Counted from the stretch's first letter, positions 5,797 through 22,886 are shown. The stretch is 64,000 nt of DNA from an uncultured bacterium (GCA_963977015.1 CAXBMO010000026.1:1-64000), one strand, 5' to 3'. Numbers and translations: made by a program. Notes: a model not told the origin generated them from the letters alone.

Positions 5797-5870
5797 AGAA
5801 AGTTTTCACGCGTCGCCTCTTGCCAAGGCTTCGGAAGTTCGGTAGGGGCCTCGAAACGTTTTTTACGAAC

Positions 5871-6110
5871 ATGCCCTACGTCAACCTGCAGATCACCCAA
5901 GGCGCGACCCGGAAACAGAAGGAAGACCTGGTTTCAGACATCACGGATTCCCTGGTTCAACGGCTCGGCAAACGTCCCGAACACATCCACATCGTCATCC
6001 AGGAGATTGCGGAAGAAAACTGGGGTTTTGCCGGGATGCTGACCGATGACTATCGGCGGCAGGCGCAAGTCGGCACCGGGGCGGAATCTCAAGAAGAAAC
6101 GGACGCATGA
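5871..6110 (+). CDS. 4-oxalocrotonate tautomerase family protein
   Basis: M-P-YVNLQIT start gives the catalytic Pro1; HIVIQEIAEENWGFAG. Confidence 0.88.
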   Translation: MPYVNLQITQGATRKQKEDLVSDITDSLVQRLGKRPEHIHIVIQEIAEENWGFAGMLTDDYRRQAQVGTGAESQEETDA

Positions 6111-6850: not shown

Positions 6851-7254
6851 GTTTTGGGCGGAGGTGTGGAAGACGCGTATTGGAGAATGGATCGCCGATT
6901 CCTGAACCTTCTGCGGAATCATTGGGCAGAGGTGAAATGCTTCATCCGCGTTGGTGAAAAACTGTATCCCTGCTACTCTTAAACCCAGACGTGACAAGCA
7001 TCCACCGCTGCTCAATTTAGCGTTCACTTCCCATCCTTTACTATTCGAATTTCGGGGACTTGACTTCTATAACGGCAGAGGGGTAAATGATAAGCAAGAG
7101 TGTTTACCCGTCTTTGTAGCAATAGGTTGCAAAGTCCTCAATCACCTATTAATCAATAAATCAGGTTCTCCGGTTCATCAGGAGTTTTAAGTAAATGATT
7201 AAGGGCAAATTCCCTTTTTCTCTGTGAATTCCCAAAGCCACAACTAGCGATTTC

Positions 7255-8454
7255 ATGGCCACACTGCTTTATCTCCACGGTATCAACGTTCGCGATGCCG
7301 TCTCACAGCTTACCGAAAAAGACGTTGCTCAAAAGTTATTGGGACATAGTCTTGTAACTATTCCGTGGGGAGTCGACACAAATGTCCGACTTCACGGAGG
7401 TGGGCTCTCCATTCCAGTAGCCCGAAAGTTCGCTCAGCCCACTAATCCTTGGCATCATATAGAAACACAGCCACTTCACGCGCTTCAAATTTTAATGATT
7501 CGACACATCGGGTCGGAGCTACATTCCGGTTCTCCGATGGCCAAAGACTTTCGACAGGAGTTGCTCAGCTGCTTAAGTCAGTTGCGAGATAAGGCCTCAG
7601 CCGCCGTTAATTCCGATTCCAGCTTTGAAGTGTTTACCGAAACGGCGGCTGGTTTGGAACTCAACTATTACATTCCTTCTGCCATTGATTGGCTGCTCTC
7701 CTGCGATTTGGACTCCAATCTTGTAGCCGTGCAATCTTCCAATGTACAAGAATACCGTGATGCTTTGGCGCGGGCGATCTTCTTTAGAGCTCGTCAGTTA
7801 CACCTCTACGAGAAATCTACATCTTCCTTCACTCAATCCGATTACGAGGTGGCCCTCGACGCTCTAGCGGAAGCCCTCCGTGGAACTGACCGGTTTCTGG
7901 GTGGTGTGAAGAGATTCTGGGACTCTGCATCAGGCTTGATTACAGGCATGGTTCGAAATCATTTCACAGAACTTGCCATTCCCGCAGTCGGTGACGTGCT
8001 CTTTTACCAAGCCCATTACCCGAATTTGCACCTCAGGATTCAAGACGTTCTGGATCAAGCTGGCAATCAACCGGTCATCATGATTGGCCATAGCCTCGGC
8101 GGCGTAGCCCTTTTTGATTTCCTTTGCCGAAATCCCTGTGATAACCAAGTTCACGGCCTGGTCACGTTCGGTTCTCAGGCACCGTTCTTCTACGAAATGA
8201 ACGTATTTGCGGATGGTGGTCTGCCTTTCGATCCAGAATCCAAAACTGCCGATCGATTGCCGCCACATTTTCCGGCGAAGTGGCTGAATATTTACGATCC
8301 GTTGGACTGGCTTTCGTTCATTGGCCGCCCGCTATTCGGCAATAGAGTAACGGATATAGAGATCGATACAAAATCGCGCAACCCGCTCGAAGCGCACGGG
8401 GCCTACAACCAAACTGCCGATTTCTGGAAGCACCTCCAAACCTTTCTCGCATGA
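7255..8454 (+). CDS. Alpha/beta-hydrolase (lipase-like) protein
   Basis: LYLHGI oxyanion region, GDVLFYQ, nucleophile elbow IGHSLGG, LVTFGSQ, WLNIYDPLDWLSF, AHGAY (Ser-Asp-His triad). Confidence 0.85.
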   Translation: MATLLYLHGINVRDAVSQLTEKDVAQKLLGHSLVTIPWGVDTNVRLHGGGLSIPVARKFAQPTNPWHHIETQPLHALQILMIRHIGSELHSGSPMAKDFRQELLSCLSQLRDKASAAVNSDSSFEVFTETAAGLELNYYIPSAIDWLLSCDLDSNLVAVQSSNVQEYRDALARAIFFRARQLHLYEKSTSSFTQSDYEVALDALAEALRGTDRFLGGVKRFWDSASGLITGMVRNHFTELAIPAVGDVLFYQAHYPNLHLRIQDVLDQAGNQPVIMIGHSLGGVALFDFLCRNPCDNQVHGLVTFGSQAPFFYEMNVFADGGLPFDPESKTADRLPPHFPAKWLNIYDPLDWLSFIGRPLFGNRVTDIEIDTKSRNPLEAHGAYNQTADFWKHLQTFLA

Positions 8455-9308
8455 GCCTGTCTACCACTCAGCCCCATGATCCCGTGACATTCCCGATCGA
8501 CTCAGGTTCGGTTCTTCTTATCCTCGCAGCGGCAACTTATCGCTATGACATCAATGAGTTGCCCTCCGTGACCAGTGACATTGCTGAAGGGGAAGCGTTC
8601 GCTGATCGCATAGGAATCCCACCTGCGCAACGCCATCTCATTTGCTGGGGAGAACCATCGGTCTGGAGTGGACAGTGCACTGTTGATCCGGACCTTCTAT
8701 TGACGTCTACAACCCTCCGCGATTTGGCTTTTGCTTTAAAGAAAGGCCCGCTTCCAACATCCGTGATTATCATGTGGGGTGGACATGGTTACTACTGCAC
8801 AGCATCGGAACGGGACCAGGTTGCCCTTGTTCATCCAGACAGCCGACTCAGTGAACGATGGGGAATCTATGAGAGTCAACTTCTTCGATGTTTTCAAAGT
8901 ATCTCAGCCCCCCAGCTCTACTTGTTGGATTGTTGCCAACAGATGGATGCCACCGAACTAAAGGACCCCGGCTCAATGATGGACCCGGGCGGAGAACAGG
9001 CGGAAGTACTGCCAGCAGCCACCTTATTTTTCCCTGGAGCCGCAAACTCAAAGAGCACGGGCGGACTGTGGAAAGCCTTCAGCCGTAAGGTATCGGCGCA
9101 TGGATCTTTGAACCTTAGGGAAGTTTATCATCAAATCCGCACGGACCAACAATACCCTCTTCTTCTGAATGTACGTTGGCCTGATGAACGTAGTTGGCTG
9201 AGGAGTTCCTCGTCTTCTCCATCAAACATCGCGAAGCCCCGAGAACTAAGCGAAACTGAAAAATTCTGGGAAGCCCAACGGAAAATCATTCAAGATTGGG
9301 GCGATTGA
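8451..9308 (+). CDS. Caspase-like (peptidase C14) protein
   Basis: His in IIMWGGHG and Cys in LYLLDCC with caspase-like spacing; ATGA overlap with the hydrolase gene. Confidence 0.7.
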   Translation: MSLSTTQPHDPVTFPIDSGSVLLILAAATYRYDINELPSVTSDIAEGEAFADRIGIPPAQRHLICWGEPSVWSGQCTVDPDLLLTSTTLRDLAFALKKGPLPTSVIIMWGGHGYYCTASERDQVALVHPDSRLSERWGIYESQLLRCFQSISAPQLYLLDCCQQMDATELKDPGSMMDPGGEQAEVLPAATLFFPGAANSKSTGGLWKAFSRKVSAHGSLNLREVYHQIRTDQQYPLLLNVRWPDERSWLRSSSSSPSNIAKPRELSETEKFWEAQRKIIQDWGD

Positions 9309-9389
9309 ATGCTCTTTACCAAACTTGGTTAGGATTTTTCGGATAGATGACAGTGTGAGCTCGGCAAGGGTTTAACCATTGGACTTGAG

Positions 9390-11954
9390 TTAGCCGAGGC
9401 GTTGTGCCAGCAAAACAATTGCCTTCATTTCTGCCTCCACTCTCTGACGCTTTTGTTTGCTCAATGAACGCTTGTTGCGTAACGAGGTTTCTTTCTTGCG
9501 GTAGCGTTCCCTCCAAAGCAACCCAATCTTGTGCGCATCACGGCCTTCCCAGCCTTCAATAATCTCTTCCACAGCATTGTAGAAGGGAGAGTTTTCGTTT
9601 TCTACCTCAGCAGTATCCGCAAGGGCATCTGCTAAGATCGAGTTAACCATGCTTTCGGCGTCTTTGGCTCCACGGAATCCCCAAAATGCCTCAATTTCAT
9701 CTTGAAGCACGAATGAAAGAGAATCATTAAGGTTCTCGTCTCGATATCGTGAAATATAGAACTCGCGGAATGAAGGGCGGAATTCGCACATCGCCTCGAA
9801 TGGCCCCTTCTCCGCATTTTTCCCTGCCAAGGCATGGCGAAACTTACGACTGACGATCGGGACAAACGCCACCGCGTAGTTCCACCGTGCGTGCTCGTCG
9901 TCTTTGTTTCTCCATTCTTCCAACCGGTCGAGCACTTCCAAGCATCGCTCAATCGATTGCGAGGATTCGGACAGCAACGCTCCGATGGCTGCGTTGCGCG
10001 CGTTGCTTTTCCCTCTACAGAGTATCTGAGAGAAGAATTCTAGAATATCAAATCCCTCCTCGTAACGCAACCGGGTGCTAATCTGGATGGCGATGTCCTC
10101 GTCTCGCGAATCGATTAAACTTCCCAGAAGTTTGGTGACGTCTCCAGCACTGGTATTTCGGATGATGGCGCGGCAAAGTTCCGCGATGCGAGAGATCAGA
10201 AAGCTTGATAAATTACGATTATGGTCATAGGCTCTGAACCACTCCACAATACCGTCCATATCATCGGTTCGCTGCAATTTTTCTCGTTCGAACTCATCTA
10301 GTGCGGCCACAAGATTCTTTGAAAAGTCTGTTAGTTCGCGCAGCCAGCCCTGATCTGTTTCCTCAGCAAATTGAGGAAACATAGACGCAAAGTAGTCAAC
10401 CAAAAATCTGACACTACGATCAGGCAATTCTGGGTCGAAAAGTATTTTGTGGGAGTAAATTTTTTGGAAGCCATCGAACGTAATAGGTTGTGACTGGAGT
10501 TGACGACGTAACTGTTCACGAATCACTGTACCGTCGAATTCGACCACCAAACTTCCGCGCTGATTGGGAAATAAGCCAATGGAGCATTCTTCCCATATGT
10601 CATCCCTATTTTGAAGCAAGAATTCGTTGGCCTCGACAAACTGCTCTTCAATTTGTTCTTCCACCTTCCCTTCTTTGCTTGTTGTGTGTTTCTTTACCTG
10701 GACCTTTTGCTTTTTGCCAATCAACAAGATATTTAGCACTTTATTGAAAACTGTCACCGGAATGCCCGGAAGGTAGGATACCAAAAAAAGGATAGCCTGA
10801 TGACACGGCTTTTTCAATAACACCCGAAGCTCGTCACCAAGTTCAACTTGAGGGGAATAGGCTGTGTTTTCGCGATCGTTTATTAGCTTTTCAAGACCTT
10901 CTGGGCCGTTTTTCTGTAGTTCTCTGCGAACATCGTTGTAAAATTCGAATGGATCTTGTGACCAGAGCTGAGACTGCCTTTGTCGCTGTAGTTCATGAAT
11001 ATGATTTACCGTTTTCTCGACTGAAAAATGCTTCAGGAGCTGTATTTCAAGTGCATCCAGTTCCCAACGAAATGTGTCGGTCTGGAGGAGACAATCTCGA
11101 AGATTGGGAATTGTGAAGCCTGAGTATATCAGGAACACAAACACTATCTCTTTTTGTTGCAGATATGGCTTAAGGTTTGCTGCCCCAGCCCCTAGTGTTC
11201 GGCTTGCAAAACCCTGCATCACGCCGTTGCGAACATGAAAAAATATCGCAGTTGGAACTTCCGAATAGGTTTCCGCGAAGGACTTGGCCGTGAAAGTATT
11301 GTCCAGCAACTCATCCCCGCTGTCGATATCAACTTGGAGGCATTTGTGTTTTGCCCTATGTAATTCTCGGGCCACCCGCTGGCCTGCCTCCACGAGCATT
11401 TGTTCATCAATCGACTCGATTACCGCCATCCTTGATTCCATGAGTTTTGAGACTTCTCCAAACCTAATATCGTAGCGTAGGTTGGAATAGAACACGACAT
11501 TATCAACCAGATCAGAAACTTTGAAATTCGGATTTTTTGTCGTGAATACTGGATTGGCCTTTTGTCCCCCGGCCAGCGATGCTTCGGCGGAACCTGGCCG
11601 GTAGTCATTCCTAAAAATATTGTAGTGGACATCCCGCTCAGCGACTATTCCTGTGTTTTCCTTGATAGTCGTTGCTTTGTTCTCCACCTTGGTAGGCTCA
11701 GCCTTATCCTTTGGAATTGCAGGAAGAGGACCATCCTGTACCGGTTGTTTCCGATCTGATGCAGGCCCTTGCTGCTCTCCAACGGCTGGTTCTTGGGCAA
11801 TTCCAGAAGCCGACTGTCCGCCTTCTGTTGCTGATTTATCAGACGGTGGTATTTCGGTGGGATTCCCTTCCGGGCTGGTGTCCGCTTCTGGTGACGGCAA
11901 ATTGCCGTCACCTTCGTCTCCAGGGGGCGTTTGATTTGTGTTTGACTCAGGCAT
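9390..11954 (-). CDS. Large protein: disordered N-terminus, possible inactive STAND-like NTPase domain, C-terminal helical repeats
   Basis: ~854 aa from ATG 11954 (4 bp after the upstream stop, preceded by GAGGAAGG); alpha/beta central region with no intact Walker A; all-helical C-terminus. Domain call is inference. Confidence 0.5.
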   Translation of the reverse strand: MPESNTNQTPPGDEGDGNLPSPEADTSPEGNPTEIPPSDKSATEGGQSASGIAQEPAVGEQQGPASDRKQPVQDGPLPAIPKDKAEPTKVENKATTIKENTGIVAERDVHYNIFRNDYRPGSAEASLAGGQKANPVFTTKNPNFKVSDLVDNVVFYSNLRYDIRFGEVSKLMESRMAVIESIDEQMLVEAGQRVARELHRAKHKCLQVDIDSGDELLDNTFTAKSFAETYSEVPTAIFFHVRNGVMQGFASRTLGAGAANLKPYLQQKEIVFVFLIYSGFTIPNLRDCLLQTDTFRWELDALEIQLLKHFSVEKTVNHIHELQRQRQSQLWSQDPFEFYNDVRRELQKNGPEGLEKLINDRENTAYSPQVELGDELRVLLKKPCHQAILFLVSYLPGIPVTVFNKVLNILLIGKKQKVQVKKHTTSKEGKVEEQIEEQFVEANEFLLQNRDDIWEECSIGLFPNQRGSLVVEFDGTVIREQLRRQLQSQPITFDGFQKIYSHKILFDPELPDRSVRFLVDYFASMFPQFAEETDQGWLRELTDFSKNLVAALDEFEREKLQRTDDMDGIVEWFRAYDHNRNLSSFLISRIAELCRAIIRNTSAGDVTKLLGSLIDSRDEDIAIQISTRLRYEEGFDILEFFSQILCRGKSNARNAAIGALLSESSQSIERCLEVLDRLEEWRNKDDEHARWNYAVAFVPIVSRKFRHALAGKNAEKGPFEAMCEFRPSFREFYISRYRDENLNDSLSFVLQDEIEAFWGFRGAKDAESMVNSILADALADTAEVENENSPFYNAVEEIIEGWEGRDAHKIGLLWRERYRKKETSLRNKRSLSKQKRQRVEAEMKAIVLLAQRLG

Positions 11955-11958
11955 AGTT

Positions 11959-14577
11959 CTAGGAACCTTCCTCACGATCAGTCGTATTAGTATTATCGGT
12001 CAAACGTGAGTAATCACTTGGTTGCGAACTATTCTTGGAATGATCTTCAATTCTAAGGTTCCCTAATTCCGACTGATCTTCCAGCGCCTTCAACTCTTCC
12101 TCCAAGGCGTTAAGGTCTTGAACGGTCTTGTCGAGCTTGATTTCATCACCGGGAAACCCGGATTCCTCATAATCTTTCTTTTGTTCTAGCAGCATCGCTT
12201 GGCGCTCAACGATCGCATTAATCCGGTTCTTCCGCATTTTGAGTTGAGCTCTACGAAACTCCTCCGCATCTTCTGCGGCTTTGAGTTCCAGCCGGCCAGT
12301 CCCCCTTTCCAAAAGATCAATGGAAATATCCAACCCAAAGGCTTTGGCAACGCTTCTCTTGGCGAATGGCGAGATCACACTGGCCTTTAGGTCTTCAACT
12401 TCGCGGATATCACGATATCGTAGTTTTGAGGAGCCCAGCGTTTGCAGGTTCTGGCGACAAACATTTACGATACTTTCACCTACCTTCGCAAAAAAGTCGT
12501 CATCGCTTAGGTGCCTAGCCGAGTTCTGAAATTTGCCCCAGGCCTCAGCATTGTTTGCTATTCCCTCAATACTAAATGTTATATTGAATGAAATTTTTTC
12601 CAAGGCGTTATCCAGAGGAGTCACCTCGAATCCCAACGTTTTAGGCCGAGACGTCAGAATGTCGTGAGTTTTGCTAAATTGTGTCTCTAGCGGGGAAAGG
12701 ATTATGGTGTAGCATTCAGCATCATATCCGTGAGGAGGCTGCTGTCCGAAGGCCTCCTCAATTGAAGCTTTGATCTGATCTCCGGGTGATGCTCCATCGT
12801 CCATGCTCTCCTCAAACTCTAGAAAAAGCTGTTGTGGTAACAGATTTCGGGTGACCGATTCCACCCGAACATTGATTAAACGTTTCATTTCGGACTCCCA
12901 GTCCCATGTGGGGGTGAGGTAGTCTCGCAATGATTGAAGGTTTCGAAGTCGCCCCTCCACGTTAACTCGGCATGGAAATCGCACCCTAGAATCCTTCGTC
13001 AAAAATCCTTCGTCGCGTTGATTACCCCATTGGGAAGAATTCGATGTAGATTTGCTTCCTGCTTGGACGGTTTCATCGGCAGTGGCAACTTCTTCTGTTT
13101 TGCCATTGTCACCTTCGCCAACAACTTGGAATTCGTCGTCGGAGCTCGGTTTGGGTGAGTCTTTGGAGGAACTTACCGATCCATTGGTTTCGCCTTCCAA
13201 ACCTTCTGGGTCGCCACCACGAGTAATCTCTAGGCGAAATCCTTCATCAATAAGCTTGCGGAGAGGAAGGTTGGGAATGCTGATGAGTTGGCGGACCACT
13301 AACCCGACATCGGCGGCTTGTTGTCTTACTGCAGATCCTATCCGCTGTTTGATAGGATCGAATGCTAGTAGCAAGTCGGTATAGGTGTGACCAAATAATT
13401 CTTTTTGCGTGCAACGATTCAAAATATCAGTAACCCAATTCTCGAAATTGGTGATTCCAGCTTGTTGGTATTTTGCGACCTCTGAAAGGTCCGTATCCAA
13501 TTGATGGCGAATTGAAACTTGGGTATCATCTGGTTGAACACGGCAAGAGACATCGTGTTCAAAGGTGTCATCAATTGTGGCAATTAAAGAGAAATTCGTG
13601 TGGAGTGCTAGGTGTTGGATACTCAAGCCATATTGATTGACAAATTGGTTTATGTGGCCTTCAAGACCCGCACGAACGCGCTCTGGCGACTTGTGAATAT
13701 CATCGATTGTAGGAGATCCTGCGAGCCATCTCTTCACTTCAGTGTCAATATTTCTCCGGAGATCTACAGGTGGAATATAAGTTTGGGAAGCATGCCCGTG
13801 TTCTTCAGCTGACATCAGGCCTATTTCATACCGAAATTGGATAGGCTCATTGGAAATGAATGTTTTGAAAGAGGGCGTTGAAAAGTACAAGATACCGTCG
13901 TAACTTGGGAAAGTCACTCCAGCGACTAACTGTAGTCCCAGTTGGCTGCTTGCTTTTTCAGCGAGAGTTCGTGCCAACGAATCCAATGCGGCAGGCGACA
14001 ATGCAGTGCCTTCTCCAACGTCTTGATGCAGTGAGTGGAGGATCGTCTCTTCGACAAATCGTAGAAAGATCTCATGTGGTTCTATAATGTCTCCCTGAAA
14101 GCCTAATCGTCCCCTAGCCAAGGACTCAACAAATTGCCGCTCTTTACTGCGAATGGGGCCGTGGATTTCAAACCAAATGTCCAACTCAATGGATTGACCT
14201 TGTAACCGCTCAAAGCGAAAATTACGAGGGGAGCAGGTTTGACGCCCTTCAAGAAACACAACGTAGTGACGCTGAAACTGCGCCGGATTAATAAAGCGAG
14301 TCCAGTTTACGGCCTTTTTGGTTTTTTCATCAATGGAAATGAGTAGCTCGTTGTCATTCAGAGACGAAGGTTTATCGGCTCCACGGGGAAGCATCTTCAC
14401 CAAAGGGGCAAGGTATGACTCAGCCACGGAAATAGAGGGTTTCCTTTCGTGGCTTTGAGTTGAGTCCACGACAGCAAAATCGTCGCTAGGGCGATTTGTG
14501 CCGAGTACTTTGAAAGCGTCTTGATTTGGCGTCTGATTGCTTTCGGTCTGGCCCAGAATTTTAAAGTCGTCGGACAT
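11959..14577 (-). CDS. Protein with ~5 tandem SPFH/band-7-like repeats and a C-terminal coiled coil
   Basis: ~110-aa units ending in QLGLQL, QYGLSI, DVGLVV, HGYDAE, AFGLDI; FLTKDSRVRF strand; heptad-rich C-terminus. Confidence 0.55.
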   Translation of the reverse strand: MSDDFKILGQTESNQTPNQDAFKVLGTNRPSDDFAVVDSTQSHERKPSISVAESYLAPLVKMLPRGADKPSSLNDNELLISIDEKTKKAVNWTRFINPAQFQRHYVVFLEGRQTCSPRNFRFERLQGQSIELDIWFEIHGPIRSKERQFVESLARGRLGFQGDIIEPHEIFLRFVEETILHSLHQDVGEGTALSPAALDSLARTLAEKASSQLGLQLVAGVTFPSYDGILYFSTPSFKTFISNEPIQFRYEIGLMSAEEHGHASQTYIPPVDLRRNIDTEVKRWLAGSPTIDDIHKSPERVRAGLEGHINQFVNQYGLSIQHLALHTNFSLIATIDDTFEHDVSCRVQPDDTQVSIRHQLDTDLSEVAKYQQAGITNFENWVTDILNRCTQKELFGHTYTDLLLAFDPIKQRIGSAVRQQAADVGLVVRQLISIPNLPLRKLIDEGFRLEITRGGDPEGLEGETNGSVSSSKDSPKPSSDDEFQVVGEGDNGKTEEVATADETVQAGSKSTSNSSQWGNQRDEGFLTKDSRVRFPCRVNVEGRLRNLQSLRDYLTPTWDWESEMKRLINVRVESVTRNLLPQQLFLEFEESMDDGASPGDQIKASIEEAFGQQPPHGYDAECYTIILSPLETQFSKTHDILTSRPKTLGFEVTPLDNALEKISFNITFSIEGIANNAEAWGKFQNSARHLSDDDFFAKVGESIVNVCRQNLQTLGSSKLRYRDIREVEDLKASVISPFAKRSVAKAFGLDISIDLLERGTGRLELKAAEDAEEFRRAQLKMRKNRINAIVERQAMLLEQKKDYEESGFPGDEIKLDKTVQDLNALEEELKALEDQSELGNLRIEDHSKNSSQPSDYSRLTDNTNTTDREEGS

Positions 14578-14588
14578 TGCTGAAATCG

Positions 14589-15383
14589 TTACGTAGGGTT
14601 GTTATTTTTTGGCCCTTTAAAGAGTCGGGCTACGAAAGATTGTGGAGGGCTCTTATTGATTCCATCGGAACCCGAATACCCGGTTGCGCGAGAGTAATTG
14701 TCACGATCGTTCGAGGTAGAACTGCTACCTTGCATCCGTTTTTGAAAATCACATTCGAAGCCAGAGCAATCGACCATGATTCCTCTGCAGGGAGCACTGT
14801 CTTTACCGTGAAAGACCCCCCACTGCTGAGTGTTTGGATTGAGAACTACCCCAATTTGCCATAGTTTACCAAATAGCTGTACCTGTGTGTCCCTGTCAGG
14901 CTCAGAGAAAAAAATCTGTAGTTCGTTGGGATGGGTATGATACCAACCAACCGTCCTGAGAAAAGGGTCGCCGAGCATCTTTTTGAGGCTATCCGCTTCT
15001 TGGAGTAGATCATTCCAAGCTGAGAAATTCATTTCGACACTCACCTCCGAGGAATGACTCTCCTTGCCGGGTATCGCATGCGTCGCAATGACGTTTAGGT
15101 TACTCATAGATAACCTAGGAAGTCCTATTTGACTTGGGTCGACAACCACTTCACCAATAAGGAGCCCGGCCTTTTCTTTCTGTCTAGTTCGATCATTTGT
15201 GCCCCAATTGATGTGATCGTATATAACCCGCCTTGCAGATGATTCAATTGTTACAAACGGACTGCTAACCAAACCGCTAGTTGTGCTTTCGTGAAACTCG
15301 CATCGATCATACGATGGCTGGTGCCTATATTCAAACGAGTGGCGTTTTTGTTCAGTATGGATTATATTGAATTCGTCTTCCAT
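14589..15383 (-). CDS. JAB/MPN+ metallo-isopeptidase (soluble)
   Basis: KEKAGLLIG Glu plus GWYHTHPNELQIFFSEPD (HxH..S..D JAMM motif). Confidence 0.9.
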   Translation of the reverse strand: MEDEFNIIHTEQKRHSFEYRHQPSYDRCEFHESTTSGLVSSPFVTIESSARRVIYDHINWGTNDRTRQKEKAGLLIGEVVVDPSQIGLPRLSMSNLNVIATHAIPGKESHSSEVSVEMNFSAWNDLLQEADSLKKMLGDPFLRTVGWYHTHPNELQIFFSEPDRDTQVQLFGKLWQIGVVLNPNTQQWGVFHGKDSAPCRGIMVDCSGFECDFQKRMQGSSSTSNDRDNYSRATGYSGSDGINKSPPQSFVARLFKGPKNNNPT

Positions 15384-15421
15384 TTTGGGACTCGAATATA
15401 CTACAATATCGACTTGAGGGG

Positions 15422-16756
15422 CTAGCTGTTCTCGGAGTCTCCCGATTCGGATTTTGTGGCCGTAGAGACATCTGCTTCGGGGGGGAGCGCTTCGGTTTTG
15501 GGTTTTGCGCCCTTGTTGTTTTCGATTTTTTGTTTAGCATCCTTGTTGTCTTCGGCTTTGGGTTTAGCGTCCTTGTCGTCTTCGGTTTTGGGTTTAGCGT
15601 CCTTGTTGTCTTCGGTTTTGGGTTTAGCGTCCTTGTTGTCTTCGACTTTGGGTTTAGCGTCCTTGTTGTCTTCGACTTTGGGTTTAGCGTCCTTGTTGTC
15701 TTCGACTTTGGGTTTTGCGTCCTTGTTGTCTTCGGATTTGGATTTTGTAACTTCGGTGTCTTGTGCTTTGGCGTTTGCTACCATCGTTTGATCACTCTGA
15801 TGTTGACTGCTAGTTGTAGAAAGAGTTCTGATGCTATCAGGTGGAATCGTGTTGTCGTCCGGATTAGTTGGAAATCCGCCAGAAGACACACTTCTCCTTA
15901 CTTCCTGAAGTTGTGTTTTTAGTTCCGTCAATTCGAACTTCAGATCTGAAACCTCGGAGGCCGCCCTTTCAAATTGCAGCCCTCGAAGACCGAGAAAACC
16001 ACCGACGATCAGTAGAATAGCCAGCGTAACAATTGCGATAATTTCCAATAGTGTTGTTCGACTCTGAGGGGACTGGACGATGATTTGAGGCTGGTTTTGG
16101 GAATTCATGATGAGGCCGGAGTCGTGATTGGAGTCGTGATTGGAGTCGTGATTGGAGAAACCGATAGGTTTGTTAGTTCTAAGGAACCCAAGGCAAGGGA
16201 GAGCGTTTTCACCGTGGAATGCACACCAAATTTCCCGATGTGGATTCAGAACAATTCCGAACTGCCAGTCCTCGCTAAAGTAGCGACGTTGCGTATCGCG
16301 GTCTGTGCCAGAAAAAAAGACATCAAGGTTGTTCGGGTGGGTGTGATACCAACCAATAATCCGAAGGTCGGGAGATGATTGAATTGCTTTATCCGCCACT
16401 TTGAGCATTTCATTCCAGGCATCGTAACCAAGATCAAGATGCACAGGGTTCCCGTCTCCTTGATGACCAGGTATCGCGCTGCGGGCTAGACCGATAACGT
16501 CCCCACCAATATCTAAGACTTGGCCAAGCAAAATTCCACCTTGCTCATTTCTGTTGAGACTAGTGGTTTGTCCCCAACCTATATGACCATTAATAATTTC
16601 AAAGGCCGAAGGTTCAACGATAACAATGTGCGTTGAACTAGTTCCAACTTGGCGATTAGAAACGGATTGAAAACCATCGAGTTGTAAGTCCTGAAAGCGA
16701 GCTGGTTCTGGGGAGTAAGGGGAAGACTCATCGATGATAGTTAGGGTGTCGTCCAT
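15422..16756 (-). CDS. JAB/MPN+ isopeptidase with TM helix, coiled coil and C-terminal 10-aa repeats
   Basis: NEQGGILLG; GWYHTHPNNLDVFFSGTD; TM LLEIIAIVTLAILLIVGGFLGL; KPKVEDNKDA repeats. Confidence 0.9.
   Translation of the reverse strand: MDDTLTIIDESSPYSPEPARFQDLQLDGFQSVSNRQVGTSSTHIVIVEPSAFEIINGHIGWGQTTSLNRNEQGGILLGQVLDIGGDVIGLARSAIPGHQGDGNPVHLDLGYDAWNEMLKVADKAIQSSPDLRIIGWYHTHPNNLDVFFSGTDRDTQRRYFSEDWQFGIVLNPHREIWCAFHGENALPCLGFLRTNKPIGFSNHDSNHDSNHDSGLIMNSQNQPQIIVQSPQSRTTLLEIIAIVTLAILLIVGGFLGLRGLQFERAASEVSDLKFELTELKTQLQEVRRSVSSGGFPTNPDDNTIPPDSIRTLSTTSSQHQSDQTMVANAKAQDTEVTKSKSEDNKDAKPKVEDNKDAKPKVEDNKDAKPKVEDNKDAKPKTEDNKDAKPKTEDDKDAKPKAEDNKDAKQKIENNKGAKPKTEALPPEADVSTATKSESGDSENS
15491..15746. 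repeat. 30-bp tandem repeat, 8 full units plus a partial one (encodes KPK[VTA]EDNKDA on the minus strand)
   Basis: Units TTCG(G/A)(T/C)TTTGGGTTTAGCGTCCTTGTTGTC begin at 15491, 15521 ... 15701. Confidence 0.95.
16118..16153. repeat. 12-bp tandem repeat x3 (SNHD) in the JAB-TM linker
   Basis: GGAGTCGTGATT three times. Confidence 0.9.
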
Positions 16757-16775
16757 TGTAAGAAGCTATTGGGGA

Positions 16776-17369
16776 TTAAATGATGTTAAAATCATCGGGT
16801 CCAGTTTCCTGTTTCCCTGAGGCACTAGAAATGTTGAAGATTTCAAAGGTTTCCTGCTCAACTTTCCCGGTTAAGTTTGGCTTTGGGGTTCGTGCCACCG
16901 GAAGCCGTCCACTATCTCGCATCTTGCAAAACCACTTTGCTTTTTCCGCATCACCATCTGTATAACTCTCGGGATTTGAAACCTCGGTATCAAATTCTAA
17001 AGTTCGAACCATTCTTACAACATGATCGACAAGGTCTATTTCAGAATCCCAGCTGCCCGCTCCTTCGCACCAACGACCGTCCCTCCACCAATTTGGATGA
17101 TAGGGAGCAGGCCTGGTGACCATCACAATTTCAGGTGATGATTCTGGGAAGGTTGAGGGCAGCTTCAGCCGTATTTCGTGGTTGTTCCGGAAATCAAAGC
17201 CGCTACTAATAACGGATTTGACCTCAAGCTTTAACTTGTATTCGGTAACATATGGAGGTGATCCGGAAACTACTTCCCAAGTTACCCACGGGCACTGTTG
17301 CTGGAATTTGACCATGTCACCGTATTCGTTTTTGAGGCGTAACCGGCGTTGTTTAGCAGAAAATGCCAT
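16776..17369 (-). CDS. Ubiquitin-conjugating enzyme E2 (UBC fold)
   Basis: RRLRLKNEY helix, LKLPSTFPESSPEI, HPN-x7-C (HPNWWRDGRWC; Cys codon 17067-17069), downstream W, NPES. Confidence 0.88.
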   Translation of the reverse strand: MAFSAKQRRLRLKNEYGDMVKFQQQCPWVTWEVVSGSPPYVTEYKLKLEVKSVISSGFDFRNNHEIRLKLPSTFPESSPEIVMVTRPAPYHPNWWRDGRWCEGAGSWDSEIDLVDHVVRMVRTLEFDTEVSNPESYTDGDAEKAKWFCKMRDSGRLPVARTPKPNLTGKVEQETFEIFNISSASGKQETGPDDFNII

Positions 17370-17372
17370 GAT

Positions 17373-18950
17373 TTAGATGGGTTGTGTGATTCCTGCTTGC
17401 GTTGCTGGAACGATTCGGAGAGCTGTATTTGATGCCACTCCCTGTTGCGAAAGTGCTGTGTTGGAGTCTAGGAGGATGCTCTCACCGCCGGTAGTAGCAA
17501 GAGAGTAATCTCCAGCCTTCAGAAAGTTCGCTTCTACGAGTTTTGCGATCACTCTTGATGGAGTCATAGATGAAGATATCTCCACGGTAATCTCCTTGCC
17601 GGTGGTGGGATGTACGAATGTCAGGGTCAATTTGTCGTTCATAGCTTTATCTATCTGAGAAAATTTATATCGTAAGGACTGTGGTGGACACAGGCGACTG
17701 GCTCGGTCCAAACTCAAGGTGTAGTAGTCAAAGTCATCTTTAACAGGCGAGAATACAGTGATGTAAGGGCCAAAGGGGAAACCTAGCTGTTGAATTGTCT
17801 TGTCTAGCACATTATTCTCAGAGGTAAGATCAATGGATTCTAAGGTGTGAGTTTCGTAACTGGTCTCCCCAATCACCGCGTTGTGATCCTCAAAAATCTT
17901 TGCGACCTCATCTTGAGTCATTGTGAAAATGGGACGGTATACGGGAATCTCTACTCCGGTTTCTAACACAAAACTTTTCACAAACGTAGTGTGTGTTATC
18001 TCTAGGCTACAGTTTTCGCCTGAATGCTCTGTTGTCGTTACGGCATTTAAAAAATCACGGACGGTGCAACTACTTGGGAGAGGGACCTCCCAATTGGGTG
18101 TGATGGGGCTTAATGGTTCAGTTGTTTCTGAAATGTTCGCATAACCAAAAGAATCGAGGCTATTTGACATTCCTTGAAAGAAGAGTCGCTTTCCGATCGC
18201 TAGATTCTGCTTGCAAAGGTGCTTTACGGCTTCCTGAACTTGGAGGCCTGAAACAAGCGTTGCAGCAATCTGTGTGGTCGCTACCCGACTCTCCTTCGCC
18301 GCTTGGACTTTAAATCCAAAACAAGAGTTACGATCTACCGCATTTTGGAGTTCATTCTTACTTAGAGTCGATTCGTAGGAAATCAGTGAATCCGGGCTAA
18401 AAAAAGTCACAGAGAGCCCCAACTCGTGGATGCCCGCGTCAATCCAGGGGATACCAGCTAAACGACAATTGCGATCAATTGCCAATCTTGCTCCAACATT
18501 ATCCAAGCAACCCAAAACGACATCCATCTCAGCGTAAATTGAAGGTCCTAGATCTCTAGTTACGTCCCCATGATACCACTCAATTTCGAATGACGGATTG
18601 ACAGCAAGCTCTCGAACTCGACGAGCTGCAACTTCGACCTTTTTTTTCCCAATGTCCTCTCTCCGAAAAAGTACAGTTCTTGAGAGATTAGATCTTTCGA
18701 CTGTGTCAAAATCGAGCGCGAAAACGTAACCGAATCCCAGTAGTGCGAGGTTTTTAAGCGTTTCGTTCCCGACAGCCCCAGTGCCGATAACCATTACTCT
18801 TGAATCTCTGAGGCGTTTTTGATCCCACCACTCGATACGTTCTTGGCGATCTACAGGGTTTTCGTCCGGATCGTAAACGTTCAAAACCGAGAAGTTATCG
18901 TCGGCCGTCGTTGAATTAATTATTCCGGTCTTCACTGTTTCCATTGCCAT
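17373..18950 (-). CDS. ThiF/E1 ubiquitin-activating enzyme fused to a C-terminal ubiquitin-like domain
   Basis: RQERIEWWDQ, VIGTGAVG, DFDTVERSNLSR, GCLDN, putative catalytic Cys in DRNSC; last 89 aa (MNDKLTLTFVHP...LRIVPATQAG-ITQPI) show a beta-grasp pattern. Start at 18950 or 18944. Confidence 0.88.
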   Translation of the reverse strand: MAMETVKTGIINSTTADDNFSVLNVYDPDENPVDRQERIEWWDQKRLRDSRVMVIGTGAVGNETLKNLALLGFGYVFALDFDTVERSNLSRTVLFRREDIGKKKVEVAARRVRELAVNPSFEIEWYHGDVTRDLGPSIYAEMDVVLGCLDNVGARLAIDRNCRLAGIPWIDAGIHELGLSVTFFSPDSLISYESTLSKNELQNAVDRNSCFGFKVQAAKESRVATTQIAATLVSGLQVQEAVKHLCKQNLAIGKRLFFQGMSNSLDSFGYANISETTEPLSPITPNWEVPLPSSCTVRDFLNAVTTTEHSGENCSLEITHTTFVKSFVLETGVEIPVYRPIFTMTQDEVAKIFEDHNAVIGETSYETHTLESIDLTSENNVLDKTIQQLGFPFGPYITVFSPVKDDFDYYTLSLDRASRLCPPQSLRYKFSQIDKAMNDKLTLTFVHPTTGKEITVEISSSMTPSRVIAKLVEANFLKAGDYSLATTGGESILLDSNTALSQQGVASNTALRIVPATQAGITQPI

Positions 18951-19300
18951 TTGCACTCGAGTTCACCACATTCCCAATTTGAATTACCTAGCTCTTTTAT
19001 GAGTTTACTCTTACATTGTGGACATTTAGAAGGCTTACCTTCACTGATTATAGCGAAACTTGTGGATCCAACACTTGCGGGGGTAGGGCTTGAAATTACC
19101 CTAAAGTGATCGTTTTCAACTGTACGGCGGTTTTGTGGAGCGGGCACGGGGGATGTCCCCATAAAGGCTGAATTGTTGTTGGTGACCGTCGGTGGGGTCC
19201 TGTTTGAGTTTTTGATGTGCAGCCACCTAGCCGCGCTGACTACAATGGCGAGCACTACAGCAAAGATTAAAAAAAATCCGAAACCCCAATCTGCGATCAC
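18932..19300 (-). CDS. Single-pass membrane protein with C-terminal Zn ribbon
   Basis: N-terminal TM; KPSKCPQCK...WECGELEC; overlaps the E1 start. Confidence 0.75.
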   Translation of the reverse strand: MIADWGFGFFLIFAVVLAIVVSAARWLHIKNSNRTPPTVTNNNSAFMGTSPVPAPQNRRTVENDHFRVISSPTPASVGSTSFAIISEGKPSKCPQCKSKLIKELGNSNWECGELECKWQWKQ

Positions 19301-19385
19301 ACTGCGAATGTGAAGTGGACTGAAATGAAGTCAAAAAAAAAATAAACTTTTAGGGTGTGTAGTGTAATTCTAATTCTTATCGGCG

Positions 19386-19916
19386 TCAGGCCCACCAGTG
19401 CTCACACTCGATGCACCGCCAACCACTTCTTGAATGCTCAGTAATTCTGGTCCCCTTACAGATTGGGCATTTTTGTGGCTTGGTGACCGAAAGCACAGTT
19501 ACCGATTCATCTGGATGTGCCCAATCAGTCGGAAGCTGAATTGGTTCAGCCAGGCGGTGACCGGAGAGTAGATTAATTCTTGGATTTGATCCAAATTTGT
19601 TAGAACCAGTGGTTCCGGGCAGGATACCACACTCAATAATCCACCAGATAATTCCCACGTAGGGAATCAAGGTAATTAGGATCCACCATCCTGACCTGTT
19701 GCGATCATGCCAACGCTTTGTCTGAATCGCGATACACATCCAAGCTGCAGGGATGAATGCAAAGAAAAATGCTGCACCCGAACCAAAAATTGCTTCCACT
19801 ATCGAATAAATTATTAACCCTGAAATTATCACTAGTGGGCAGAATTTCCAGAACAGGTTGCGTCCTATTCTTCCTTGGAGTTGGAACAAAATGTGACTGG
19901 GCTTCATAGCTCGCAT
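19386..19916 (-). CDS. DUF805 membrane protein with C-terminal Zn ribbon
   Basis: GRIGR..FW, KRWHDRNRSGWW, PGTTGSNKFG (DUF805); KPQKCPICK...WRCIEC. Confidence 0.85.
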   Translation of the reverse strand: MRAMKPSHILFQLQGRIGRNLFWKFCPLVIISGLIIYSIVEAIFGSGAAFFFAFIPAAWMCIAIQTKRWHDRNRSGWWILITLIPYVGIIWWIIECGILPGTTGSNKFGSNPRINLLSGHRLAEPIQLPTDWAHPDESVTVLSVTKPQKCPICKGTRITEHSRSGWRCIECEHWWA

Positions 19917-20123
19917 TCTTCACTTATCATGTTTCGAAACTGGACCGGTCAGGATCAAAGGTGTCTGCCTAGTTAATATGAATCACCGCTATTCAAACAT
20001 TGTTCAAGTCATGGATTCTGGAAGATCGCATTGAGTCCCTAAACGGTGTCTTTGGCGTGACCTCTCCGGGGGAAGTTCACTGTCGAATTTATCGGCAGTG
20101 CGGCGGCTCTCAACACGACCTAC

Positions 20124-21455
20124 CTACTCAAACTGATACCCCCGCTGCTTCGTCTGTACCTGATCAAAGAGCTGCCCGGCAGGCTGGGAATCCAGGTGCA
20201 CGGCGCTTTCGTGGATGCAGTGGGCGAAGGCTTGCCACTGGAGGAGGCTGTTGATGTAGATGGCTTGGGCGCTGAGACGGCGGGCTATTCCGGCGGCGTA
20301 GATGTCGTCGGTCTCGAAGAGGCTGACGAGGAGTTCGCGGCGGGGACCGAGCAGTTCGGGGAGGGCGTCGAAGTCGTCGATCTGGCTGATGGCGAGGACG
20401 GGGCCGGAGAGGTCGGCGTCGAGGAAGGGGGCGATGTTGTCGAGACCGAGGAAGGTGGGGATGACGAAGTTGGCGCTGTGTTTGCCGCCGCAGATGAGTT
20501 GGGCGCCGTTTGCGACGAAGTGCTCGACCTGGTCGAGGAGGGCTTCTGCGCGGTCGCTGGAGGGGAGGGGGCCGATCTCGGTGTGGTTTTCGAGCGGGGG
20601 GCCACTCTTGAGGTCGAGGATGCGCTGGGCGAGGAGTTTGCGCAGTTTGGTGTAGCAGGCGGGGGTGGCGAGGATGAGTTTGGGGGCGAAGGCGGTCTGG
20701 CCGTTGTTGGTGAAGGCTTGGGCGACGATTTCGGTGGCGAGTTCCTTGAGGTCGTGGGTTTGACCAACGACGACGACGCCGGGGCCGCCAAAGTGGAGGG
20801 AGGTGGGTTTGAAGCGGGCGACGCGTTGGACGGAGAGGGCCGTTTTGCGGCTGCCGTAGACGACGAGAGCTTCGATGCGGGGATCGGCGCAGAGGGCGGG
20901 ACCGAGTTCGGTGCCGGGGCCGTTGAGGATGGCGAGTTGTTGCGGGTTGCCTCCGGCTTTTAGCCAGAGGTCGCGCAGCTCGTTGGCGATCTGGAGGGTG
21001 GCGCGGGCCGGCTTGAGGACGACGTTGCAACCTGCGGTGAGGGCGGGGAGCACGGCGAGGGCGGGCATGAGGAGCGGGAAGCTGGCTCCGGTGATGGCGC
21101 CGACGGTGCGGTAGGGGTGGCGGCGGAGGAAGCCGAGCCAGCCGAGGCGGTAGGGATCGTAAAGGAGTTCAGCTTCGCCGGTGAGGGGGGCGAGTTTGGC
21201 GAGTTGATCGATGGTCCAGATGGTCTCTTCAACTTCGGCGCGGGAGTCGACGACAGGTTTTCCTCCCTCGATGGCGATGCTTTTGGCGAGAGGCTTGAGG
21301 TGGTCTTCCAGCGATTGGGCGAGGCGACGCAGAATTTCGCCGGCATCATTGGCTTCCCGCTGGGCCGCAGTTGCGCTCAAACCGGTGACAGCCGGCGCTT
21401 TGGCAGCGGGATCCAAGGCTTCGAGAGCCTGGTCGAGTTGGTCGCGGGTTGACAT
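20124..21455 (-). CDS. Aldehyde dehydrogenase-fold protein lacking the catalytic residues
   Basis: EGGKP, AGCNVVLKP, EIGPL motifs present, but NNGQTAFA (no Cys), LHFGG (no Glu), GASFP (no Asn). Confidence 0.8.
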   Translation of the reverse strand: MSTRDQLDQALEALDPAAKAPAVTGLSATAAQREANDAGEILRRLAQSLEDHLKPLAKSIAIEGGKPVVDSRAEVEETIWTIDQLAKLAPLTGEAELLYDPYRLGWLGFLRRHPYRTVGAITGASFPLLMPALAVLPALTAGCNVVLKPARATLQIANELRDLWLKAGGNPQQLAILNGPGTELGPALCADPRIEALVVYGSRKTALSVQRVARFKPTSLHFGGPGVVVVGQTHDLKELATEIVAQAFTNNGQTAFAPKLILATPACYTKLRKLLAQRILDLKSGPPLENHTEIGPLPSSDRAEALLDQVEHFVANGAQLICGGKHSANFVIPTFLGLDNIAPFLDADLSGPVLAISQIDDFDALPELLGPRRELLVSLFETDDIYAAGIARRLSAQAIYINSLLQWQAFAHCIHESAVHLDSQPAGQLFDQVQTKQRGYQFE

Positions 21456-21695
21456 CGGTTAGGATGGAGACTGAGACAAAGCCGAGGTTTGCGGCAAGAT
21501 CAAGTTTCTCCAAACTTGGGAAGTGGCGCGAGCTTTTAAGGATGGGGTTGAGTTTTGAAGGTTGTGGAAAATTGAGTTGCTACAGGTTGCGGTGCACACT
21601 TTCTGTGCGAATTCCTTGAGTTTTCGCTCGCGTCAGGTTGTGATACGGGCTAAATCGGCTTTTCAGGCCCTCACATAGATTCCTAGATTATAAGC

Positions 21696-22886
21696 ATGAA
21701 AGTATTGGTTCTTGGCGGCGACGGCTTTTGCGGTTGGCCCACTTCTCTCCATCTCTCAAACCTCGGCCACGACGTGGTGGTTCTGGACAATTTATCGCGA
21801 CGAAACATCGATAATGAGTTGGGAGCGAATTCGCTGACGCCAATCACTCCGATGGGGACGAGAATTGAGGCTTGGAAGGAAGTTTCCGGGAAGGATATCG
21901 GCTTTCACAACATCAACGTGGCGAAGGACTACGATCGATTTTTGGCCATCATCAAGGAAGAGAAGCCGGATGCGATCGTCCACTTTGCCGAGCAACGCGC
22001 GGCGCCTTATTCGATGAAGTCGCCCGCGCACAAGCGTTACACGGTCGACAACAACCTGAATGCGACCCACAACACCCTTTGCGCGATCGTGGAGAGCGGG
22101 TTGGACATTCATTTGGCGCACCTCGGAACGATGGGCGTCTACGGTTACGGAACCGCCGGGATGAAGATCCCTGAGGGGTACCTCGATGTGGAGGTGACGA
22201 CCGAAGACGGTCAGAAGATCGAGCAGCAGATTCTGTATCCGACCAATCCGGGAAGTATTTACCACATGACGAAGAGCCAGGATCAGCTGCTCTTCGCCTA
22301 TTACGTGAAGAATGACCAGGTGCGGATCACCGATCTGCATCAGGGCATCGTTTGGGGCACGCACACGCCGGAGACGAGCCAGGACGAGCGCCTCATCAAC
22401 CGTTTCGACTACGATGGCGACTACGGCACGGTGTTGAACCGCTTTTTGGTGCAGGCCGCAGTGGGTTACCCGCTGACGGTGCATGGCACGGGCGGCCAGA
22501 CCCGCGCGTTCATCCACATTCGCGACACGGTGCGCTGCGTGCAGTTGGCACTCGAGAATGCGCCGGCCAAGGGGGATCGGGTGAAGATCCTGAACCAGAT
22601 GACTGAGACCCATCGGGTGCGCGATTTGGCGGAACTCGTCGCGAAGCTGGCGAATGCCGAGATCGCCAATGTCTCGAACCCGCGGAACGAGGCTCCCGAG
22701 AACGAATTGCACGTTCACAATGACCTGTTTTTGGACCTGGGGCTGAAGCCCACCACGCTGAGCGAGGGATTGCTCGAGGAAGTTACCGAGATCGCGAAAA
22801 AATACGCGGATAGGTGTGACAAATCGAAAATTCCTTGCTATTCCACGTGGACGCAGGACCAAAAAGCGGGCGTTCCCGGCGCCTAA
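21696..22886 (+). CDS. sqdB: UDP-sulfoquinovose synthase
   Basis: GGDGFCGWPT, HFAEQRAAPYSM, HLGTMGVYG, PGSIYHMTK, ITDLHQGIVWG, NRFDYDGDYGTVLNRF. Confidence 0.95.
   Translation: MKVLVLGGDGFCGWPTSLHLSNLGHDVVVLDNLSRRNIDNELGANSLTPITPMGTRIEAWKEVSGKDIGFHNINVAKDYDRFLAIIKEEKPDAIVHFAEQRAAPYSMKSPAHKRYTVDNNLNATHNTLCAIVESGLDIHLAHLGTMGVYGYGTAGMKIPEGYLDVEVTTEDGQKIEQQILYPTNPGSIYHMTKSQDQLLFAYYVKNDQVRITDLHQGIVWGTHTPETSQDERLINRFDYDGDYGTVLNRFLVQAAVGYPLTVHGTGGQTRAFIHIRDTVRCVQLALENAPAKGDRVKILNQMTETHRVRDLAELVAKLANAEIANVSNPRNEAPENELHVHNDLFLDLGLKPTTLSEGLLEEVTEIAKKYADRCDKSKIPCYSTWTQDQKAGVPGA

Follow-up and report, generated by a model that had tools for sequence, protein, structure and literature searches.

Within a 64,000-nucleotide stretch of DNA from an uncultured marine bacterium (GCA_963977015.1, CAXBMO010000026.1:1-64000; hereafter the window, meaning the whole stretch), we found that a single minus-strand open frame (17373-18956, 527 amino acids) encodes an E1 enzyme with a ubiquitin-like modifier (Ubl) as its tail. 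The fusion is real. Comparison with related sequences indicates that the tail is the operon's own and sole Ubl gene, joined in frame to E1, and that the join arose by a lineage-specific loss of the frame break separating neighboring E1 and Ubl genes. The operon itself appears to be a horizontally acquired, low-GC, eukaryote-like bacterial ubiquitin system with the order E1, Ubl, E2, JAB, JAB. Our favored reading of the whole, to which we assign a probability of about 0.75, is that of a split-type ubiquitin operon that has lost its E1/Ubl frame break and would still run an ordinary cascade. The fusion is most simply a tolerated stop loss. In our view it is a variant of the split arrangement that arose recently and is tolerated, and it brings no new mechanism.

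The final 89 codons of the frame run from an in-frame ATG (17640-17642, MNDKLTLTFVHPTTG...) to ...LRIVPATQAG-ITQPI and a TAA stop (17373-17375). An earlier note on this DNA, made by a model from the sequence, had read this tail as a beta-grasp Ubl with a masked glycine terminus and its own start codon, and re-reading the frame confirmed the coordinates and sequence that it gave. With the 89 amino acids as query, an exhaustive phmmer search yielded 160 proteins at E <= 0.001. Its top match other than the tail itself was a free-standing protein of 84 amino acids (P0121), 61% identical over residues 1-85 (E 1.9e-23), that ends PATQAG-AQ. Among the 149 non-self matches listed, 48 were single-domain proteins of at most 130 amino acids, 11 had two domains, 70 had at least three tandem domains and 20 carried a single domain inside a longer protein. 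The N-terminal motif of ubiquitin was present in 69 of these 149, and one tandem match (P0124) is a textbook polyubiquitin (PF00240, E 2.2e-262). Many members of the family, whose typical length is about 83 amino acids, are proteins of 80-95 amino acids that align to tail residues 4-84. This homology to free-standing Ubls supports the claim that the tail is a genuine ubiquitin-like modifier, something beyond the ubiquitin-fold domain (UFD) of an E1.

When the tail was aligned with 29 free-standing members of the family (alignment A2), the sole invariant column was Gly84 of the Ubl, which is Gly522 of the fusion and lies in PATxAG. Ala83 and Pro79 were at least 90% conserved across the 30 sequences, and the glycine stood at or near the protein end. 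Among 56 Ubl open reading frames (ORFs) with near-complete profile coverage, the tail included, the domain ended in AG in 43 and in GG in 9. The AG at which the earlier note placed the terminus can thus be read, with its glycine invariant in 30 sequences, as a conserved activation terminus, and Gly522 as the reactive terminus of the family. A profile built from A2 matched single ubiquitins in the PDB at E values of about 0.0006-0.006 and a long polyubiquitin chain at 1.4e-32. In a search of the window's own genome, which is 95% complete, this profile scored the tail at E 7.7e-29 and matched no other Ubl. PADLOC returned no match for the 89 amino acids alone.

AlphaFold2, given the 30-row alignment, folded the tail with a mean predicted local distance difference test (pLDDT) score of 86.4, in the order beta-beta-alpha-beta-beta with a disordered end. 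Foldseek matched this model to PDB entries for ubiquitin variants, Caldiarchaeum ubiquitin (6fno_D, TMq 0.74) and ISG15, all at a probability of 1.00 and with TMq values of 0.67-0.75. The predicted fold and these matches confirm, at the level of a model, the beta-grasp that had been proposed from the sequence.

The join is present in records assembled or sequenced apart from the window. A separately assembled marine metagenome scaffold (L087) is identical to window positions 15716-20143 over all 4,428 nucleotides, junction included, and a protein from a 4,248-nucleotide metagenome contig of other sources (P0270) is identical across 525 amino acids. A check of reads around the junction agreed: a 151-nucleotide record (X3), taken from the marine run of a separate study, matches 17619-17769 perfectly and without gaps, reaching more than 31 letters to either side of the middle of the linker and just 24 on the Ubl side of the ATG. 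We therefore rejected an assembly or sequencing error, with E1 and Ubl truly two genes, an outcome that the earlier note had named as fatal to its reading and to which we attach hardly any credence; what speaks for it is that contigs of an organism-labeled run (X1, depth about 5) leave 17610-17760 bare, and these are neutral on the join. Elsewhere in the Ubl, at 17522, an X1 contig has A where the window has G (depth 5.4), a change from CTG to TTG on the coding strand in Ubl codon 41 that we read as synonymous.

We scanned 80 related loci, each from the genome of a different species, with E1-core and Ubl profiles, and found E1 and Ubl fused in the same frame in none of them. The Ubl began within 120 nucleotides past the E1 stop in 31 loci, lay 121-600 nucleotides downstream of E1 in 13 and lay further downstream in 5; it was upstream of E1 in 20, and no Ubl was found in the remaining 11. 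A stop does precede the Ubl ATG in homologues, a comparison that the earlier note had proposed. In relatives with adjacent genes, the spacer from the E1 stop to the Ubl start measures 5-85 nucleotides, and the order E1-Ubl-E2-JAB(-JAB) recurs in the closest relatives and matches the window. In six loci the Ubl ORF opens right after the E1 stop and in the same frame, so that a single stop-codon change would fuse the two. The closest E1 (P0002, 416 amino acids, 63% identical) and the best-matching Ubl, P0121, are each recorded on a contig of 3,237 nucleotides; taking these as one contig, E1 and Ubl appear to be split there. Fifteen further metagenome loci contained no fused form except the identical scaffold L087, apart from which the metagenome scan found no relative above about 40% identity over the whole E1.

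Within the fused frame (Table 1), homology to E1 runs until about residue 422 and homology to the Ubl begins at about residue 441. The linker between them has 16 codons, its final 27 nucleotides are AT-rich, and AlphaFold2 modeling of the full-length fusion gave the blocks covering residues 421-440 low pLDDT values of 52-58. It reads as the old E1 tail plus the old intergenic spacer (roughly 20-27 nucleotides), now translated in frame, and we read the in-frame ATG as the ancestral start of the Ubl. Since no stop is left between the parts, each copy of E1 should come with its own Ubl, attached through some 17 residues.

The surroundings of this ATG resemble those of a gene start. A 63-nucleotide segment at the ATG folds at -2.3 kcal/mol and the 25 nucleotides upstream are 76% A+T, against means of -11.6 +/- 4.0 kcal/mol and 53% A+T for the remaining 34 internal ATGs that lie in frame within operon genes, one of which is as unstructured and none as AT-rich. 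Nine scored gene-start positions averaged -6.8 kcal/mol and 60% A+T. By eye, no Shine-Dalgarno motif precedes any operon gene, and its absence at the Ubl ATG is therefore uninformative. Its surroundings being still AT-rich, unstructured and like those of a start, the Ubl ATG probably continues to give rise to some free Ubl.

The residues that follow the glycine are a family norm and no peculiarity of the fusion. Of 55 Ubl ORFs that the profile covers almost completely in the related loci, 40 carry residues beyond the glycine (1-19 in 39 of them, 188 in one) and 15 end at it; of 29 aligned database homologues, 10 stop at the glycine and 19 run on. According to the portion of the source available (PMC6043591), Caldiarchaeum CsRpn11 cuts an 87-amino-acid CsUb precursor after Gly78, removing nine residues, and the accessible part of a preprint (Chambers 2023) describes BilC as cutting BilA after a conserved glycine that precedes up to nine residues. 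The earlier note had proposed that a JAB peptidase trims ITQPI after AG. The circumstances that it invoked hold up, in that ITQPI is an extension of the type removed in both of these pairs and two intact JAB genes follow; for the cut itself, we infer from the analogy that an operon JAB removes ITQPI. Several other Ubl arrangements were also seen among the relatives. In L067 (14735-15596) the Ubl AG is followed by 188 residues that are E2-like in appearance, two Kordia loci (L004 and L005, near 10700-11260) have extra di-Ubl genes between their JABs, and P0164 is a Ubl with a C-terminal EAD8 effector-associated domain.

The E1 core matched Pfam PF00899 (ThiF) at E 4.4e-45. By sequence, its closest PDB entries were those of Uba1 from eukaryotes (E 2.3e-26), with MoeB and ThiF ranking lower. 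It has a GxGxxG loop (G58, G60 and G63), an invariant LGCLDN (C150 and D152) and, in an alignment of 74 sequences, an invariant Cys212 that is the probable catalytic residue. In the full-length AlphaFold2 model, residues 40-422 were mostly above pLDDT 90, giving the E1 a confidently folded C-terminal domain of its own. Nearly all E1 homologues listed (117 of 120) are 386-467 amino acids long, span only some 75% of the query and stop at the start of the linker. A Ubl domain is absent from 118 of these 120 and present in two, the window's own protein and P0009, from the cable bacterium Electrothrix.

P0009 belongs to a different clade and is a second E1-Ubl fusion, 38% identical in E1. It has no Met at the start of its Ubl, continues for about 270 residues after ...SAGG and was seen as a protein record only. 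Its C-terminal domain matched no Pfam family, and its protein atlas scores (at most 0.82) were at noise level. Two further searches for fusions are weak as blanks, and both missed P0009: a word-index search with residues 439-527 returned only the window's own protein among 61 candidates, and the A2 profile, run against longer proteins, found 5 of which the sole E1 was the window's own.

We also predicted a complex of two copies of E1 (residues 30-425) with the trimmed Ubl (residues 1-84). The docking score was 0.64, compared with 0.00 for the best of 3 controls, and passed a mark reached by 58 of 80 solved complexes and by 2 of 110 mismatched pairs. The runs shared at least 89% of their contacts, with partner pLDDT of at least 81. 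In the model, Ubl residues 78-84 contact E1 residues 58 and 60-63 (the GxGxxG loop), 150-154 (LGCLDN) and 174-182, while the Ubl N-terminus lies outside the interface. Because E1-Ubl complexes have already been solved, this pass may reflect structures that the model was trained on, and it shows a likeness to an E1-substrate pair, not binding.

Together with what is known of the family, from which its steps are drawn, the favored reading suggests the following cascade. One of the two Rpn11-like JABs would trim ITQPI and bare Gly522, which E1 would adenylate at its nucleotide loop and then load onto the conserved Cys212. The HPN-type E2 would next take over the Ubl on its Cys101 and hand it to lysines of the targets, and the JABs would also undo the conjugates.

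Several observations weigh against this reading of a tolerated stop loss in a working operon. With the 89 amino acids alone, Pfam at E <= 0.1 gave neither ubiquitin (PF00240) nor any other family. The full-length model left the Ubl unplaced, with pLDDT values of 29-47 for residues 481-527, because the alignment used (A4) has nearly no rows there. The window's E1, like P0002, lacks six cysteines (positions 193, 196, 278, 331, 353 and 356) for which conservation across the 74 aligned family sequences is at least 90%, which we presume from ThiF/MoeB-type enzymes to be zinc-site cysteines, and it may have lost some function with them. As the mutation behind the join, a stop-codon substitution and a small indel both fit; when the three frames of 17643-17720 were compared by eye with the C-terminus of P0002, a change from stop to sense was no better an explanation than an indel of one base. 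That the ATG still resembles a start could be a relic not yet erased. Finally, all copies seen are 100% identical and so give no measure of how old the fusion is or of selection acting on it.

A possible, if unlikely, alternative is that the modifier is obligately tethered. After trimming, E1 would activate its own Ubl or that of its dimer partner and the whole E1-Ubl would be conjugated, so that E1 is delivered to, or polymerized on, a target; this overlaps with the favored reading and differs from it in which form matters. All E1 should be made as E1-Ubl, with no stop remaining and no other Ubl gene in the genome, but the ancestral ATG has been kept in a start-like context, and since none of the 80 related loci is fused, the family evidently works with a free Ubl. 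P0009 is in favor, being a second and independent fusion in which, with no Met at the Ubl start, internal initiation cannot bypass the tether; it was, however, seen as a database protein only. The predicted docking leaves the Ubl N-terminus free of the interface, although the full-length model does not show the tether reaching the active site and each E1 could give its own Ubl only once. For Bil and Bub operons, the accessible text (PMC11601603) reports that Ubls preceded by a large N-terminal domain can serve as substrates of conjugation. That the window encodes a working self-tagging E1, which loads its own tethered Ubl and plants E1 on targets or builds E1 polymers, with P0009 as an independent fixed version, we consider rather doubtful.

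It is improbable, in our judgment, that loss of the frame break crippled the system, by having the tethered Ubl block the active site or by leaving too little free Ubl, and that the operon is decaying. The fusion is confined to this lineage, and the island is sporadic, with E1 found in none of 60 related genomes at E <= 1e-30; other marine data sets nevertheless showed this allele and no other. The six lost E1 cysteines fit degeneration, but they are missing from P0002 as well, and there the Ubl seems to be encoded separately. Decay is also hard to reconcile with eight open frames, with the intact catalytic motifs of E1, E2 and both JABs and with a Ubl no more diverged from its closest relative (61% identity) than E1 is (63%) and still carrying PATQAG.

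We rejected a third possibility, which we regard as very improbable, that the tail is a UFD-like domain that recruits E2 or other partners and is never activated. The predicted beta-grasp does sit at the E1 C-terminus, but this E1 family already has a folded C-terminal domain of its own that ends at residue 422. Acidic-Phe-x-[IV]-[ILV] motifs at the ends of several operon proteins, a pattern defined post hoc, could dock on a Ubl surface. The tail, however, is homologous to free-standing Ubls, keeps the invariant glycine and PATxAG, occupies the slot of the separate Ubl gene and is near-absent from E1 homologues (0 of 80 loci and 1 of the 119 other E1 proteins listed), and without it the genome would leave E1 no Ubl to activate.

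The wider E1-Ubl-E2-JAB family, with a modifier that has direct phmmer matches to polyubiquitin of eukaryotes, has already been described in outline; what is rare is the fused layout, in a bacterial system whose type is otherwise familiar. One of the closest known systems is the operon of Caldiarchaeum subterraneum (CsUb, E1, E2, a RING E3 and CsRpn11). The two systems share a small modifier with a short extension after its reactive glycine, and the tail model resembles CsUb (6fno_D), JAB_A is closest in the PDB to CsRpn11 and E1 is closest to Uba1; the E2 described here has HPN and a cysteine, but its Pfam and PDB matches are weak. Unlike the Caldiarchaeum operon, the one described here has no RING E3 by Pfam, two JABs of which one is apparently membrane anchored, a terminus of AG rather than GG, a Ubl fused to E1, and a bacterial host in which it lies on a low-GC island. 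According to the available portions of two papers, the Rpn11-like JAMMs of prokaryotes are encoded in operons together with homologues of Ub, E1 and E2 (Fuchs 2018, PMC6043591), and related operons occur in several bacterial phyla (Zuin 2014, PMC4197634).

Bil/Bub systems have the same part list of Ubl, E2, JAB and E1, and in Bil, going by the accessible part of the Chambers preprint, the universally conserved glycine of the Ubl is followed by up to nine nonconserved residues that the operon JAB removes. The present E1, however, is a single ThiF domain without the PF14459 N-terminal domain of BilD; the PADLOC BilD model matched only E1 residues 51-162 (E 7.4e-08), more weakly than the CBASS E1-E2 models. 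The E2 is of the HPN type and not CEHH, and the order E1-Ubl-E2-JAB differs from the Ubl-E2-DUB-E1 given for Bil in the same part of the preprint. Lacking PF14459, with a partial BilD match and another gene order, the operon is thus eukaryote-like and not a Bil operon. Fusions reported in Gong 2024 (PMC11601603) are Ubl-E2 (BubAB), JAB-E1 (BubCD) and E2-E1 (BubBD). In the known Ubl-E2 fusion, as we read it, a cut after the glycine separates the parts, whereas in E1-Ubl it does not.

The UFD of eukaryotic E1s is likewise a beta-grasp at the C-terminus, but as far as is known it is a fixed, nonactivated part of all orthologues and is not known to have a reactive glycine. The tail described here differs in being a recent add-on of one lineage, homologous to free Ubls and with its terminal motif kept. 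Ub-like and E1-like domains also share one chain in Ubl-ThiF fusions of sulfur-carrier pathways, for example Campylobacter ThiF, as described in the accessible text of Iyer 2006 (PMC1779556); there the Ubl is N-terminal, a separate ThiS gene co-occurs and the role was judged to be another one, whereas here the Ubl is C-terminal, is the only one and keeps its activation terminus. The same text describes E1/E2/JAB/Ubl neighborhoods with many fusions among the parts. In the full-text literature that we searched, as far as it was available and with Iyer 2006, Chambers 2023, Gong 2024 and Kaur 2020 among it, we did not find an E1 that carries its pathway's own modifier at the C-terminus, although supplementary operon tables may list cases.

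Bacterial E1/E2/Ubl/JAB systems are an active field (Bil, Bub, CBASS Cap2/Cap3 and the Caldiarchaeum operon). Because a cut after the glycine leaves E1 and Ubl joined, the fusion is a natural test case for the activation of a tethered modifier, in cis or across a dimer, and also for the fate of an E1 that becomes part of a conjugate. It bears on how the eukaryotic UFD might have arisen. Were it a self-tagging E1, it would be a living example of an E1 gaining a C-terminal ubiquitin-fold domain by capture of a neighboring modifier gene; if instead the stop was simply lost, the loss is tolerated and the old start continues to supply free Ubl, its interest is that of a minor curiosity of evolution.

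Table 1. The parts of the E1-Ubl frame and the neighboring operon genes, in window coordinates.
Feature	Position	Strand	Length or residues	Remarks
DUF805+ZnR	19386-19916	-		hydrophobic N-terminal stretches by eye; PF05656, E 1.4e-21; upstream of E1
TMZnR	18932-19300	-		small; hydrophobic N-terminus by eye, zinc ribbon; upstream of E1
E1 core	17691..18956	-	residues 1-422	ThiF-type adenylation domain plus C-terminal domain
Linker	17643..17690	-	residues 423-438	CPPQSLRYKFSQIDKA; between the end of E1 homology and the Ubl start
Ubl domain	17391..17642	-	residues 439-522 (Ubl 1-84)	putative ancestral start ATG to invariant Gly (codon 17391-17393)
C-terminal extension ITQPI	17376..17390	-		predicted propeptide, after the conserved Gly; stop 17373-17375
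E2	16776..17369	-	197 amino acids	HPN motif 91-93, Cys101; starts 3 nucleotides after the E1-Ubl stop
JAB_A	15422..16756	-	444 amino acids	Rpn11-like JAMM peptidase domain; PF01398, E 1.5e-06
JAB_B	14589..15383	-	264 amino acids	second JAMM peptidase, no hydrophobic stretch; PF01398, E 9.2e-09; HTHP...FFSEPD
p872	11959-14577	-	872 amino acids	accessory gene, no Pfam family
p861	9390-11975	-	861 amino acids	accessory gene, no Pfam family

All eight frames of the operon are open and full-length. The E2 matched the Pfam family UQ_con at E 0.0051 with 16.9 bits, below the cut-off of 27, and its best PDB match was a Cdc34-type E2 (E 0.0026). Its motif residues are conserved among 57 family members (H91 in 54, P92 in 48, N93 in 41 and C101 in 56). 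For JAB_A the best PDB match was the Caldiarchaeum Rpn11-like protein CsRpn11 (6fjv, E 1.9e-10), and JAB_B matched CsRpn11 (E 0.0021) and BRCC36; the Pfam model that both JABs match, PF01398, is the JAB/MPN model of eukaryotic type. The JAMM residues E71, H138, S149 and D152 of JAB_A were present in all 62 sequences compared, and H140 in 61. Past its peptidase domain, JAB_A has a hydrophobic stretch that looks by eye like a transmembrane helix and then a tail of tandem repeats rich in Lys, Asp and Glu. Within this C-terminal part (15422-15800), the tail has about eight tandem copies of a 10-residue unit (...EDNKDAKPKV...), in a kilobase with an AT skew of -0.32.

Homologues of p872 and of p861 each adjoin E1 in 5 of the 80 related loci. 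In a protein atlas, the cluster nearest to p872 is a bacterial one of 751 amino acids (score 0.94), with Band_7 in 14% of its members, and the next are SPFH/Band-7 and vault-shoulder clusters (0.84-0.88); we treat both as leads only. The two proteins encoded upstream of E1 each end in a four-Cys zinc ribbon (KCPxCK...WxC..ECxWxW). The ribbons match each other at E 1e-05, their matches to Pfam ribbons are weak, and weak matches to the ribbon proteins occur beside E1 in four related loci (upstream in L014, L026 and L027, downstream in L028). Pfam found no RING E3 in the eight operon proteins, only the four-Cys zinc ribbons, with IBR_1 at E 0.061. The zinc-ribbon proteins could substitute for the missing RING E3 or serve as a Ubl-binding module.

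Close to their ends, several operon proteins (window 11959-19300) share a short motif of acidic residues and Phe, [DEN][DEHNAT]-F-x-[IV]-[ILV], in the forms DDFKIL, DAFKVL, DDFAVV, DEFNII, DDFNII, DNFSVL and DHFRVI. Its sites are residue 20 of E1, the last residues of E2, the N-terminus of JAB_B, p872 (three N-terminal and one inside) and the small zinc-ribbon protein. The pattern was defined after it had been seen, and so defined it occurs 8 times in 3,463 operon residues, 0 times in 33,308 residues of other window ORFs and 20 times in 374,237 residues of unrelated ORFs from the related loci. None of 62 E2s of relatives has it; similar N-termini were seen in the JABs of L056 and L058. It resembles Ubl-docking motifs of the LIR/SIM type.

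The operon lies on a low-GC island of roughly 7000-20000. GC content is 45-52% in the island, about 46% for the operon itself and 57-63% in the sequence on either side. At E <= 1e-30, E1 was not found in any of 60 related genomes, among which 3 share the genus of the host, 33 its family and 24 its order, an absence that fits horizontal acquisition. There is no tRNA gene in 5000-22000 and no recognizable integrase among the ORFs scanned in the island. The other strand of the island carries an alpha/beta-hydrolase-like gene (7255-8454) and an unassigned gene (8451-9308).

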